64,000 nt of DNA, from assembly GCA_951406725.2 (NCBI GenBank), contig OX597816.1, forward strand, positions 87,730,001 through 87,794,000. The letters are read 5' to 3'. A program made the position numbers and the translations under genes. This document shows positions 1,345 through 11,527 of this stretch, piece after piece. The notes beneath the pieces were generated by a model. It was given only the letters and a program-made list of their open reading frames with translations. It had not been told where the DNA came from and made no database searches. Positions within the stretch are counted from its first letter, which is position 1. Every line of letters begins with the position of its first letter. The DNA is from Octopus vulgaris. Lineage: Eukaryota.

Positions 1345-1813
1345 GTAAGTGATTAGCAGGCTGCTTTTCCAAGTTTGACATAATCGTAACATCTCCAGAA
1401 TTTTGAAACGTTTCTCAGATTTCATAAATTGAGGACTATGGTCCTGTCACTCAAATCCTGCTTTCTGCTAAGCCAAAATGGTAAAAGAGTTTTCACTTGG
1501 TTCAGGGTATTTTTGACATTTCCTGTTTTGTGTGGGTGTATATGTATGTGTATATATATATGTATGTATACACACACACACGTGTGTGTGTGCGTAATAT
1601 ATACATTTTATATATATATATATTACTTATGCTTTTATGAATCATAGCTTCGTTTGTTGTTTCCTCTGGGCCATTTACTGGTTCAATGAATTTATGCCAT
1701 ATGGTATTTTTCTGCTTGATTCACCTATTCATTGAGAATTCTTGCAGTAAGATACACACGCACATAAAATTCTGATCTTCTCATCACCGTTTTACTTTCC
1801 TCAACATCTCATC

Positions 1814-2039
1814 TTAACCCTTTAGCATTCAGACTACTGTCAAATGTGATGCTTATTTATTTAGACTGGTTTGAATTTATCCTGCGTTATCTCTTAGCTT
1901 TGAGATTTCAGTGATATGGCTGTTTATTTTTAGAATGATATTGTAGAGTAGGTGTGAGAGGTAGGATCTAGCCAATTTGAATGCAAAACATGTAGAATAT
2001 CTTAACTTGATATGGCTGGTTTACATGCAAAAGTGTCAA
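1814..2039. mobile_element. piggyBac-type MITE family 1 (TTAA-CCCTTTAGCATT ends)
   Basis: Left TIR intact, right TIR degenerate; homologous to 32579-32811 and 34603-34822. Confidence 0.7.
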
Positions 2040-3905
2040 GCTCAGTTTCTGTCATTGCCCTCTCTTCTATTCTCCCAGTCAAAGGAGTTGAGCCTCCTTA
2101 GTCTTGTAAGTTATAAAGCAGCCTCATTATTGCTGGTGACCTGATAAAACATATTCAATATACTGTAAAGTGATTAGCAAATTGAGCATAGGGTCAAGAA
2201 GACACTTTATTCTTGCCACGGTCATGTGAGCTTCTCCATTACTGGTGCTATGATATAGTGCACCCAGTACTCTGTAAATTGGTTGGTATTAGGAAGAGCA
2301 GCCAGCTGTTGTTTGAGATGTCTAAGTGAAATATGGTCCTCTGATTCAGACTGGGACATCCCATCCGAGCCATGCCAGCATGAATAACATGTTAAATTAA
2401 AAATGATGATGCTGAAGCTGTATATGAATTGCAAGTGATTTAATCTTAAAGTGTGTATTGAAACTAAGGTAACTGCATCATGAAAGAGCCATAAAACTGC
2501 ACAGAAAGCTGTTAAATTCTAGGATGTCCTGAAGAATTGCTATTTTGAATAAGGTAGCATAACAGTTAATCAATCTTTAGAACCTCATGTAAATTGTTAG
2601 ATATCCAAATTTCAGTTGCATATTAAACCCTATTAGTGCTTCATTTGGTTTTCTTTTTTTTTTTTATATTATGTACATTAGAATAATTTAGAGTATATCA
2701 GAGTTTATCTTTTTATTATAGCATCATAAATTATATAATCTTTACAGATGTTTCACTTGTGAATATTAGTAATCATTATGTAGTTGATTGCATGATAATA
2801 TCGAAATGCCAGGTCTTCAGAAGAAAACGATAATTCAATCCACTATTATTTACCAGCAGCAGGCAGTTGCATTTTAAGATACAACTGTACAGACTTAAGA
2901 GAATCATCTTTTTTATAGCAGTGAAGAAGAAAAAGACTTAGTTTAAATTTATCAGAAAATAAAGAAAAGAAGGAAGATGTATATGAGGAAGAACTGTAGT
3001 TACTATCTTACTGTTCAGGATTTTGTATATTAGTATTACACCTGTCATAGCTATTTGATTCAACATTAATCATTAGATTTTTTTTGTATATATATTATAT
3101 TTTGTTATGGTTTTTATCTCTTTCTAGTTGCTTATTCACTCTGAAGAGATTTAGAATCACTAATTTCATTTGCTAGTTTTATTAAATTTTTCCAACTCTC
3201 AGTAAAATTATCTATTTTGTTTATGGTTATATTAGGTTTTTATTAATTTCATTCCTAGATCTACAGCTAGTTATGTTATCATTCTGGTTAATTATATTAG
3301 CTATGATTATACTAGTATTATCACTTATTCATTTATTTGCAGTATTTTTACGCTCGGAAGGTTGAGTTAAGAGGTTGTGTGGTGCATTAATGTTTCAGAT
3401 GTTTATGTAGAAATTATGCTAAATTTAGAGTTATTTCTATCAGTGGATGTAATAATTTGGATTTAGTATTGGAAACGGTGAATAAAACATTCACTGGTAT
3501 TGTGGAACAGACACCCAGCTGAATAGAAATCTACTATGTGCCCACTGTGTGACACATTGGGTGTCTTCTACTACAGCGCTGGGTCAACTGAAGCCTTTCT
3601 GAGGAGATATGGTTTCCAAACCTGAGAGAAGCCTCTTTTATGTGTGTGTGGCATCAGTTGGATGGTTTGACTAGAACAGATGAGTCAGAGAGCTCTGCTA
3701 GGCTCTAATGCCTGCTTTGGCATGATTTCTACTGCTGGATATCCTTCCTTAATGTCAACCACTTAACAGTGTGTGTGTGTATGTATATATAGATATATAG
3801 CTTTATATATATATTCACAGAGAGAGAGAGAGAGAGAGAGATAAAATGGTAAGACAACAAAAGAAAGAAAGAGACCTCGATATTATGTAAATAGAAGAAT
3901 TTATC

Positions 3906-4189
3906 TGTAAATGTAATATGTGACAATTATTCGGTAGCCATGTTAAAACTCTGCACTTCGGATGCCAAGGTGGAAATCCAAGCTGCCATCTCTTCAGTTA
4001 TCCGGCCATTGGAAAAATGCTATGAAAAATGACCGTTATATAAAGGGCCCTATCTATAATGGTCATTTTTCATAGCATTTTTCCGATGGCCGGATAACTG
4101 AAGAGATGGCGGTCTGGATTTCCACCTCGGCATCCGAAACTCGGAGTTTTATCATGGCAACCGAATAATTGTCACATATTACATTTACA
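3906..4189. mobile_element. 284-bp ungapped foldback element, probably inverted Penelope-like terminal repeats
   Basis: Two 142-bp arms symmetric about GGG|CCC (4047/4048), with scattered mismatches; each arm carries a hammerhead-like core. Confidence 0.7.
4089..4158 (+). ncRNA. Type I hammerhead ribozyme motif (minimal Penelope-type)
   Basis: Stem I GATAA(4093-97)/TTATC(4149-53); CTGAAGA 4098-4104; stem II GATG.../...CATC; GAAA 4136-39; stem III ACTC-G-GAGT; GUU cleavage triplet ending at 4148. Confidence 0.7.
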
Positions 4190-4825
4190 CACACACACAT
4201 ATGTATGTGTGTGTGTCTCCTCATCTTGTTTCTTGACATCATCTGCTAATAGTAAATGGACATTACTGTCATAAAGGCAATGTTGTTCCTTTGCGTTCTT
4301 CCCTGAAAGCATATTAACTTGCTCAGAAATGGACAAGTGTTAATGACAGGAAAGGCATCCACCCATAGAAATTCTACCTTAACTAAATTTCATGTGACCC
4401 ATGCAGGCATGGAACACTGTTAAAATGATGGATGGCAACAAAATAGTAATAGTATCGTTTGAATACATAAACAGGTAAAAAAAAAGGTATTCAGTAAACA
4501 GATTTTATACTTTTATTTAATATTAAAGCAGCCCTCTCACTCATCTCTCCAGATAATCAATATATTTTCTGTGTTTTTCGGGGTTTTTTTTTTAAGATCA
4601 TATACAGCATGTGAGAAACATGAGTAGCTGTACATTACCATTAACAACATGATCGTTGTGTAGTTTTCATGAACTTCCACTCGCTTCACCCTCGTCCTCA
4701 CCATCCTCTTCATTATTATAATTGCGATTGATGCACTGGAATTGTGTCAGTGACCAGGTCATAGATGTACAATGGAAAAACCTTTGATATTCCGGAGTAT
4801 ACAATACTATCATCACAAAAAAAAT

Positions 4826-4998
4826 GTGTATATATATATATAATATATATATATGTATGTATGTATATGTATATGTATATATGTGTATGTATATATGTAT
4901 GTATATATATGTATGTATGTATATGTATGTATATATATATGTATGTATATATATATATATGTATATATATGTATGTATATATATATATATATAATATA
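4826..4998. repeat. Compound (TA)n/(TATG)n microsatellite
   Basis: Direct inspection. Confidence 0.95.
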
Positions 4999-5216
4999 AA
5001 AAACAAAATTAGATGTAGCAGTATATCTGTATTTTAAATAGCTATCATGTCTCTTTTCACTATATATAAACTGTTTTAGTTTCAACTCAGATCAATACCA
5101 GATCAATTGACTTGCCAAACAACTACAATTCCAATTATCTTTGTTTCTTTTTTTTTTTACTTCTCTTTCTTTCTTTTTTTTTTCATTTGTTTCTTTCTTC
5201 CTCTTTTTTTTTGCAG

Positions 5217-5321
5217 ACAAACATCTCTTTACTGCCACAGTTACAGATACATCAGGTCGGGATCCTTTAATATTTAGGGAGATGATCCGTACAGAACAAC
5301 ACGACTCCAGATGGCTAAATG
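5217..5321 (+). CDS. Sema1a: Semaphorin exon: DKHLFTATVTDTSGRDPLIFREMIRTEQHDSRWLN (phase 1/1)
   Basis: ttgcag acceptor, G|gtaaag donor, RTEQ.DS.WLN motif. Confidence 0.95.
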
Positions 5322-6798: not shown

Positions 6799-7276
6799 AA
6801 AATATATTTTGTTAGACTAATGATTATAACTTAAATACTTATTTATTCTCAGACTTAGAGTTCTTTATCCTAAGTGGCTGAATTTATCTATCTGATTGGA
6901 CAATTTGCCTGAATCAATACAACTCTTCCATACTAGATGTCGTGGTTTTCCGTAGCAGTTTTCACTTCCTGAACCTGATATCCAGTGTGTTCCGCAAGTT
7001 GATTGATATACAGAACTCTCGGTCTGCTGATACCTGTATGTCCATGCAGGGGTGGAGTGGAGTTGGTAGTGAGGGGTGTGGTCTTCCTAGCATAATGTGT
7101 TTCTTCGTTCTCTGGTTACCGAAGTGATGGTAGTAAGACTTGCCATACAGTCGCTGTAATACTGTTTTATTACACCTTGCTGAAACAAATGACAATAAAG
7201 AAAAAAGGAACACTACCACCTACAATAACTACTACAGTAATGAAGTTGGCTGATGTTTTCTTTTTTTTTTTTTCAG

Positions 7277-7365
7277 AACCTGACTTTGTCAGCTCTTTTG
7301 AATATGGCGATAAAGTTTATTTCATTTATAGAGAAGCAGCTGTTGAAAACATAAACTGTGGGAAG
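7277..7365 (+). CDS. Sema1a: Semaphorin exon: EPDFVSSFEYGDKVYFIYREAAVENINCGK (phase 1/0)
   Basis: tttcag acceptor, AAG|gtata donor, EP.FV.S...VYF..RE.AVE..NCGK motif. Confidence 0.95.
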
Positions 7366-9228: not shown

Positions 9229-9339
9229 AATACTGAAGATTTTTGCTCATTATTGTTGTTGAATACACACTTACACTTATATAGATTTGAATCTTTCAAG
9301 ACTTCATTGTTACATAACCTTTGTTTTGTTCTACACTAG

Positions 9340-9481
9340 GTGGTTTTTTCTCGTATCGCTCGAGTTTGCAAAGCAGATCAAGGAGGTCTGAGGTCACTAG
9401 GTGGAATCTGGACAACTTTCTACAAAGCACGGTTAAATTGCTCAATTCCAGGAGAATTCCCATTTTACTTCAATGAAGTTG
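9340..9481 (+). CDS. Sema1a: Semaphorin exon: [47 protein letters not shown] (phase 0/1)
   Basis: cactag acceptor, G|gtgagt donor, core Sema-domain motifs. Confidence 0.97.
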
Positions 9482-11234
9482 GTGAGTTACAACTGCTTTC
9501 TCTTCTTAAAACTATGTTGATATATCCTTTCAGAATGCTTTAAGTGGTCTTTCACTTTTAATGTACCTTGTAGGAAACATCATACTAAGAAGGTATTTTG
9601 TCCCAAGTGTATCCCTAATCAAGCAAGCCTATAATTAAGGACATTCATCTTGTGGCCATCACATTTGTTTTTATTTTTCAAACTACAGTATCTAATATGT
9701 TCTTTACAAACTGTTAGATTATGGTCTGAAAGTAATTTGCTTATTGTTTCGAGAAGTTCAAATGATCACATTGAGGCTTCCTCATTGTCTATTTGAGTCA
9801 TCTGCTGACCAGCAGCATAGTCTGAATGTCTGTAAGAGTTTGAACTGGCTTCTTGTTAATTATTTATTTGGTAAAAAAAGGGTAAAGACCCCCTTCAGCC
9901 ATGAATGACCATGGAGTTGCACCTAGAAAGTTACTCCCTGAGGCACAAGTCCCGGTAAGGCTGGGAAAGGCAAAGCTGAAACAGTTTGGCACCAGTGACA
10001 TTGCAACTCATTTCTATAAAAGAATGAACTGGAGTAACGTGAAATAAAGTGTCTTGCTCAAGAACACAACATAAAGCTAATCAGGGAATCGAATTCACTA
10101 CCTTACAATTACGAGCCTGATGCTCTAACCACTGAGCCATGCACCTTCACTTAGCCATGCCCTATCTATTTAGTACTAGGATATCAAAATGGTTGAGTAT
10201 GTGTTGTGACATCATAATGATCAAAGTTGATGTTGTGATATCACAGTATTAGCACAGCATGGAGATAGTTAGAAAGTGTTACTCAGTATAAAGTAAAAGG
10301 ATATCAAAATATTTGGATAGTTATGATGTTAAAATACATCAGTGTGATAAAACAATGTGAGAGTAAAACATTAAAGTGCCACAGTTTAGGGACAAGTGTT
10401 ATGGTATAATGTATTGTAGTATCTTGTGTAAGGATTACAGCAATATTAAAGCCAGGGCTATGATGCCATAAAGTTTTATGAGAGCTGGTGGAAGCATATC
10501 ATCCGCTTCTCTCATTAAATACTTGAACTAGTGTTGTGCTATCATAAAATGTTAATATCACTTGCCTCATAACATAGCTAGTAAGTGTTATAACATGATA
10601 TCATACGGTAATTTTATGCCAAGTGTGAGGATTATCAGGTTTTAAGTAAATGATATATGCTCTAACCTGTTATAACATCAAATCTTTAGATATTATATTG
10701 TAATATCAAAATGAGTGTTATGATATCATAATTGTATTTAATATCATTAACCTTAAGAGTTTGGTGTTGAAACAAATGTGATGGTATGATGAAGGTATAA
10801 ATAAAACGATATAAAATTTATGAAACTATTATAATTTTTTATTTTGATATTAAAAAGCTGAACAAGTGTAGTTATACCACAAAATGTTATAAATATCAAG
10901 TATTAGGATATTCTAAAGTTGAAACCTGTTTTGATTATTAATATGTATTATGCTATTGATTGTTAGAATATCACTATATTGTAGCAAGGGTTTCACTATC
11001 GTTATTATATATACTCATAAAAAGAGTCATATTTTTATGATTAGATTTATGGGGTCAAATTGTACATAGATACTACTTTTTAAAGGCTGAGATTCATACT
11101 AGGATACAAAATACCATATCAGTAGCAGAAACCTTATGATCTCTTAAATAAGAAAAAAAATGCACAATGAAGTACAATAAAAAAAATCTGATTTGGTGCA
11201 TTAAAACACACATACTACTAAATAGTAACAAATA

Positions 11235-11527
11235 TAAGGCAACATATCTTGGCTCAGTGGGTAGTGTGTTTGATTCTTGTATCGAGCTGAGTGTTGTGTT
11301 CTTGAGCAAGATGCTTTATTTCATGTTGCCCTAGTCCACTCATCTGTAGAAATGAGCTGTAGCATCACTGATGCCAAGCTGTATTAGCCTTTGTTTTTCC
11401 CTTGGATGACATTAGTGGGAAGGCTGGTATGCGTGGTCTTCCATAAACAACCTTGCTCAGACTTGTGCCTCAGAGGGGAACTTTCTAGGTGCAATCCCAA
11501 TGGTCATTGATGACCGAAATGGATCTT
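11235..11527 (+). mobile_element. SINE family C with second tail type; also 9882-10150 (-). Other tails at 27508-27720 and 49388-49700
   Basis: Shared gtgttcttgagcaa.acactt.atttcac.ttgctccagt.cactcagctg core. Confidence 0.75.

Follow-up and report, generated by a model that had tools for sequence, protein, structure and literature searches.

A palindrome in a semaphorin intron of Octopus vulgaris as a head-to-head pair of truncated Penelope-like element ends bearing a hammerhead motif

An intron of an Octopus vulgaris semaphorin gene contains a 284-bp palindrome, one arm of which carries a hammerhead ribozyme motif with an intact core. The arm is the 3' terminus of a high-copy Penelope-like element (PLE), and we conclude, with a probability of about 0.9, that the palindrome consists of two 5'-truncated 3' ends of a Hydra-clade PLE joined head to head in an intronic microsatellite, likely in one insertion event. 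The locus is an ordinary instance of known insertion debris, and the family itself was not found in the open literature searched. Positions refer to the window, the whole 64,000-nucleotide stretch that was analysed (contig OX597816.1, 87,730,001 to 87,794,000).

The left arm (3906-4047, - strand) and the right arm (4048-4189, + strand), each the terminal repeat (pLTR) end of the same element, are 142 nt long and align without gaps, in agreement with a preliminary description made from the DNA letters; there is no spacer between them, they are 90% complementary with 14 mismatches, and as RNA the palindrome folds at -217.6 kcal/mol, with a z of -28 against 100 shuffles. The limits of 3906 and 4189 given there for the element stand on the right, where the arm stops at a short 3' end and passes into (CA)n, but not on the left, where the copy reaches 66 bp further, to 3840. 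This one-sided 'tail' (3840-3905, - strand), absent from the right arm, is the long 3' end of the element; it ends at an (AG)n run, and the same 3' extension occurs in other genomic copies. The 3' ends of the left and right copies correspond to a long and a short site that are 62-66 nt apart. The GGGCCC on which the arms had been described as centred (4045-4050) is present, but only as the junction, GGG/CCC, where two copies ending at one and the same base meet: upstream of this base, close copies go on with other sequence. Mixed microsatellites flank the insertion, with TG/TA/AG repeats, likely the target, on the left (3769-3839) and CA/TA/TG repeats on the right (4190-4216); directly next to the ends stand (AG)n and (CA)n, not pure (TA)n, and because both flanks are microsatellites a target-site duplication is unreadable at 3840-4189. 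Measured against the majority of 25 close copies, private changes number 6 in the right arm, none of them in the ribozyme core, and 10 in the left arm, which looks like neutral drift. Variant letters over the arms in contigs of sequencing runs come from other copies of the repeat, and no ORF fragment of the PLE family was found within the 64-kb window. A second inverted pair in a later semaphorin intron (9963-10078 and 11285-11400; 116 nt, 76% complementary) probably represents a common short repeat present twice.

The host intron (1345-5216, + strand) begins with GT at 1345 and ends with AG at 5215-5216, the preceding exon ending at 1344 and the next starting at 5217. Contigs from two of four sequencing runs, presumed to be of RNA, join 1255-1342, 5215-5320, 7276-7363 and 9338-9481 with zero mismatches. 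The upstream exon matches Semaphorin-1A at an E value of 0.003, a downstream exon matches semaphorins at 1e-17, and the Pfam Sema domain was matched by one of the five reading frames submitted. Since spliced contigs and semaphorin exons are found on both sides, the element is intronic, as had been proposed, and its + strand is transcribed.

A genome search with the right arm returned 2,717 first-look candidates, the best 40 of which, self apart, scored at 93-97% identity, and there are ~8,000 core-motif matches genome-wide. At the best 30 loci the element stretches upstream for variable lengths, whereas its downstream end falls at one of two places and is followed by microsatellite; most copies end in (TA)n-type repeats. 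At one locus a GIY-YIG frame was recognised upstream. A search with this frame returned 30 loci, of which 22 bear the arm 0.2-1.3 kb further downstream in the same orientation, two have only an inverted upstream copy of it, and six lack it. Open frames of 717 codons that combine a reverse transcriptase and an endonuclease (RT-EN) occur at three of 14 loci picked for long frames. These contain RWK and DKT (at 46 and 123 of the L067 frame), YKDD and YVG motifs, a CxCX5C linker, and CxxC and CxH flanking the E and N of the endonuclease; inspection by eye found no CCHH motif in the 717-codon frames. Pfam gave nothing on the 717-aa frame and GIY-YIG at an E value of 0.014 on an ORF fragment. The tandem unit measures 2,580 bp, and units adjoin without microsatellite. 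An ORF piece of the older subfamily, to which 3840-4189 belongs, is 79% identical to the 717-codon frame, and among the loci examined fully open ORFs were seen in younger subfamilies only, none in the older one; a single ORF with an RT plus GIY-YIG at the C terminus in an element of less than 3 kb is a feature of sister subfamilies and not of the locus itself. The Penelope-like origin of the arms given in the preliminary description is supported by these searches for copy number and for links to Penelope RT/GIY-YIG ORFs. Its further proposal, that of a separate class of non-autonomous foldback element, is not: copies are 5'-truncated variably and longer ones lead into the RT-EN frame, and the palindrome is therefore made of two truncated copies from an autonomous family. 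Two of the matched loci neighbour other elements. At L022, ~1.4-0.9 kb upstream of the match, lies an RT fragment of another Penelope-like family with no tblastn hit to the Hydra ORF, and L028 has a 284-codon mariner-like transposase frame, recognised by eye, downstream of the match.

The RWK, DKT, CxCX5C, CxxC and CxH features define the Hydra clade of PLEs (Craig et al. 2021, PMC8557442). The octopus family appears to belong to this clade on its motifs and on a by-eye comparison with part of the Hydra-1_Obim protein, an assignment by motif rather than by an RT tree; a Neptune/Nematis assignment, the first candidate, was dropped on the linker and RWK/DKT motifs. As described in PMC8557442, the clade, Hydra-1_Obim included, shares with the octopus family a unit of less than 3 kb (here 2,580 bp) with a single RT-GIY-YIG ORF, the above motifs, (TA)n targets, and a sense-strand hammerhead ~100 nt from the 3' end whose palindromic stem III has a one-base loop. 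The octopus family has other hammerhead stems than Hydra-1_Obim, among them a longer stem II that carries one additional base 3' of it. A family resembling Hydra-1_Obim is separately present in the genome (58 exact hammerhead-motif matches), and its endonuclease, at the two of eight loci reaching the ORF, is 40-43% identical to that of the octopus family. The latter would thus be a sister to Hydra-1_Obim outside the families listed in the supplement of PMC8557442, and may already be catalogued in Repbase or in subscription papers. In the Hydra-1_Obim-like family (L318-L325) short and long 3' ends are also seen, ~60 nt apart. A metagenome contig (L081), from a scan that gave four loci, carries a Hydra-type ORF that is 45% identical, a (TA)n end, and near its 3' end a stretch (2995-3075) that by eye resembles a hammerhead, CTGAAGA...GAAAC.

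Head-to-head pairs are common in this family. Of 30 position-ordered loci, 12, 20 and 15 have an inverted copy no more than 1.5 kb upstream, in three sets that overlap and in which members of a pair may count twice. Forty-five head-to-head loci were picked from hit lists without regard to how their copies end, leaving aside two loci with several units, and 42 pairs were scorable. A long 3' end (with 'tail') is combined with a short one in 40 of the 42 (p 2e-10 against 50:50), the exceptions being a three-copy locus with two long ends and one pair with two short ends, and locus 3840-4189 fits the pattern. Inverted pLTRs and a one-sided tail are known from PLE insertions (Arkhipova et al. 2013, PMC3846280; Craig et al. 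2021, PMC8557442), which, as described there, have in common with the octopus pairs head-to-head copies, a palindromic junction and a tail at one end, so that the earlier reading of the inverted pair as a Penelope insertion product holds. The octopus tail, at 62-66 nt, differs from the 30-40 nt of those insertions, and at the octopus locus both copies are truncated inside the terminal repeat.

The truncation points were compared in 24 young pairs that aligned cleanly; pairs of the old subfamily, pairs with several units and pairs that aligned poorly were set aside. In 10 of the 24 the start points are at most 30 nt apart, against 2.1 expected (0 of 20,000 permutations), and in 14 they are clearly different, the longer arm being either the long-ended or the short-ended one. 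Junction positions differ between loci and span the whole 2.58-kb unit, and that of 3906-4189 recurs in none of 29 other best-hit loci.

From these genomic patterns, a course for the insertion may be proposed in which the GIY-YIG endonuclease of the element would break a (TA)n-type repeat on both strands, each of the resulting DNA ends would prime reverse transcription at one of two internal start sites of the element RNA, and both cDNAs would stop after ~140-210 nt and then be joined. The strict pairing of a long with a short end would be a direct consequence of the two RT start sites. The resulting copy, devoid of the promoter-ORF unit, would have drifted neutrally since insertion by 4-7% per arm, with the hammerhead as a standard passenger of PLE terminal repeats.

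For one step of this course there is a possible, if doubtful, substitute: the second arm could have arisen by fold-back self-priming of a single cDNA of the same element, or from an antisense template, as has been proposed from junction palindromes (PMC3846280). The zero-spacer junction at 4047/4048 and the excess of near-equal truncation points favour self-priming, but the 14 pairs with clearly different start points, in which either end type can be the longer arm, argue against it, as does the strict long and short pairing that flows directly from two start sites. It is very improbable that the palindrome moves as such, as a dedicated MITE- or retrozyme-like foldback element; tight palindromes do recur, with several pairs less than 130 bp apart, and the 10 young pairs with nearby start points are in keeping with this, but the junctions vary by locus over the whole unit, that of the octopus locus is private among the best hits, copies continue into the ORF, and the tandem array of short hammerhead units typical of retrozymes is missing.

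The preferred reading, insertion primed at two start sites, has a counterpart in Poseidon PAc of Anolis, for which the tail is reported to be the stretch from one RT start site to the other, cutting and extension take place on both target strands, and the hammerhead needs the element's protein and is dispensable for insertion in vitro (Frangieh et al. 2024, PMC11167929). On that account, PAc resembles the octopus family in having a tail set by two fixed 3' ends, in its AT-rich targets and tandem arrays, and in a template mostly read through the hammerhead. PAc is of another clade and its hammerhead overlaps the start of the ORF, whereas that of the octopus family lies in the 3' UTR, ~200 nt before the ATG of the next unit.

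Two ideas about the template were rejected. Its cleavage by the hammerhead is without support: upstream 5' ends fall within 18 nt after the cut site in 5 of 38 cases against 2.5 expected (p 0.10), a post hoc 8-nt window holds 4 of 38 (uncorrected p 0.02), and the site is passed by 58 of the 74 resolved 5' ends as well as by 21 unresolved loci, with no pile-up there. Had the template been a unit-length circle, copies that start at unit positions 2510-2525 should have had short 3' ends; the seven found comprise one short, four long and two rearranged. Among upstream partial repeats (L211-L297), 5' ends cluster weakly at 2510-2525, the short start site (7/38, uncorrected p 0.01), and at 2425-2438 (6/38, uncorrected p 0.04). 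At C1:57208400-57223000 (L194-L195) and C3:37225765-37236099, four to five near-identical 2,580-bp units stand in tandem, with inverted units after them and without microsatellite between; such arrays would reflect recent amplification and read-through of several hammerheads. At three loci (L190, L192 and L138) tight palindromes are joined via TGGCCA, a hexamer complementary to itself that lies immediately 5' of stem I and is likely a microhomology hot spot.

The hammerhead motif (4093-4153, + strand) consists of stem I (GATAA, 4093-4097, with TTATC, 4149-4153), CTGAAGA (4098-4104), stem II (4105-4134) followed by an extra C (4135), GAAA (4136-4139), and the palindromic stem III ACUC-G-GAGU (4139-4147), with U4147 and U4148 before a cut predicted 3' of 4148. 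It has the type I core (C3 U4 G5 A6 N7 G8 A9, G12 A13 A14 A15.1, U16.1 H17) and was the sole match of a hammerhead descriptor on both strands of the 64-kb window, and the hammerhead in a terminal repeat and its palindromic stem III, as given in the preliminary description, are supported. The mirror copy in the left arm was likewise correctly described as having GAAG for GAAA (A15.1 to G); its stem III is further broken by three changes (at the equivalents of 4140, 4141 and 4143), and stem I has one (4152). A scan with hammerhead models, proposed earlier as a check, was negative: two Rfam scans gave no hammerhead match at E ≤ 10 and only generic miRNA-hairpin matches below threshold.

Conservation of the core in genomic copies holds in part. 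Each core position is kept in 74-79 of 79 BLAST-collected copies, except for U4, kept in 49 and replaced by C in 29, and the free N7, which is A, T or C depending on the subfamily. Stem covariation across copies, which had also been looked to as support, is not above chance: among 74 distinct copies, whose alignment was chosen by core pattern and so has inflated conservation, both partners vary in 4 of 25 pairs, where shuffles give 5.5. An alternative helix, 4091-4095 with 4132-4136, showing a switch from G-C to A-U was rejected as covariation, because it is the best fold in one of 12 copies folded and both changes are CpG-type subfamily transitions. The layout recurs across Hydra families with different stems in File S2 of PMC8557442, where ACTC-G-GAGT is given as stem III for Hydra-2_aMil and Penelope-16_HM, and by this comparison the motif is very likely a true homologue of the Hydra hammerheads.

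Strong ribozyme activity is disfavoured by the predicted folds and by what is known of related motifs. The extra base at the foot of stem II, where the 10.1-11.1 pair would directly adjoin the core (C4135, which is U in young copies, or alternatively 4134 as a bulge), the covariation at shuffle level and a misfold that pairs the core 3.7 kcal/mol below the active fold all argue against it, as do the missing Rfam hit, U4C in the youngest subfamily and the lack of a 5'-end pile-up at the cut site, and PLE hammerheads are described as having low activity (PMC4209133). The best two-copy cofold of 4087-4160 is not a dimeric hammerhead, even though self-pairing of the 14-nt stem III palindrome comes to -14.1 kcal/mol. 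The minimal hammerheads of PLEs (Cervera and De la Pena 2014, PMC4209133) and of non-LTR retrozymes (10.64898/2026.07.22.740005) are described as likewise of type I, with a stem I that is short, a stem II that is long and a palindromic 15.2-16.2 region, but their unpaired base lies between 9 and 10.1, whereas that of the octopus motif is 3' of stem II. Hammerhead pairs on opposite strands, 100-700 bp apart, are already known from the same two sources. The locus has one head-to-head pair alone and no tandem short repeats each with a hammerhead, and is therefore not a retrozyme as defined in 10.64898/2026.07.22.740005.

The U4 position separates older from younger copies. Exact core 16-mers number 3,532 with U4 and 4,448 with C4 genome-wide, against 6 and 1 control hits, and C4 (CCGANGA) subfamilies are younger, with a median distance from their own majority of 1.4% compared with 8.6% for U4 (28 copies each). 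The open RT-EN frames sit in the young C4 subfamilies. The youngest, ORF-intact subfamilies have U4C in the hammerhead core with N7 still A or T (for example L067:5228-5305), a change present in none of the Hydra rows examined in File S2 of PMC8557442. In work on a viroid, U4C is reported to have lowered in vitro activity while the viroid stayed infective (PMC3088659).

In the pre-mRNA the antisense arm would emerge first and zip up the sense arm before the ribozyme folds. Equilibrium modelling of five transcript lengths, 4110 to 4200, paired the core (4098-4104) at a probability of 1.0 within the arm-arm duplex and gave the hammerhead helices 0.0 once formable, in line with the sequestration proposed in the preliminary description; the right arm alone gave hammerhead pair probabilities of 0.01-0.10. 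If the sense arm is indeed zipped up first, the intron is likely uncut and spliced out as a long hairpin. Such sequestration, a sound prediction of the folding, would be a property of every such pair and not special to 3840-4189. That the insertion was co-opted as a host RNA switch controlling the semaphorin, through ribozyme cleavage released by editing or as a small-RNA source, is the least credible reading of all: the sense-strand core is intact while the antisense core is broken, and repeat-derived dsRNA is described as the main ADAR target in metazoans (PMC9989829), but most copies have an intact core anyway, the difference in private changes between the arms is well within chance, the arms have drifted to 90%, there are thousands of like copies in the genome, the right arm seldom forms the hammerhead even alone, and PLE hammerheads are reported to be weak or dependent on the element's protein (PMC4209133, PMC11167929).

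Locus 3840-4189 alone matters little, being one of thousands of such stumps. The family behind it is a young, intact, high-copy Hydra-clade element and is therefore usable to test two points left open in the PLE papers, the building of tandem and inverted PLE insertions and the purpose of PLE hammerheads. Tentatively, it could be taken as a read-out of the PLE mechanism in which, from long and short start sites and with near-equal stops, a single protein dimer may have primed both ends on one RNA, the ribozyme would be dispensable or of variant core in the U4C subfamilies with arrays of up to five units, and thousands of self-masking hairpins would serve as intronic editing substrates. The handles on the two points are the long and short rule, followed by 40 of 42 pairs, and the U4C change in the young subfamilies.
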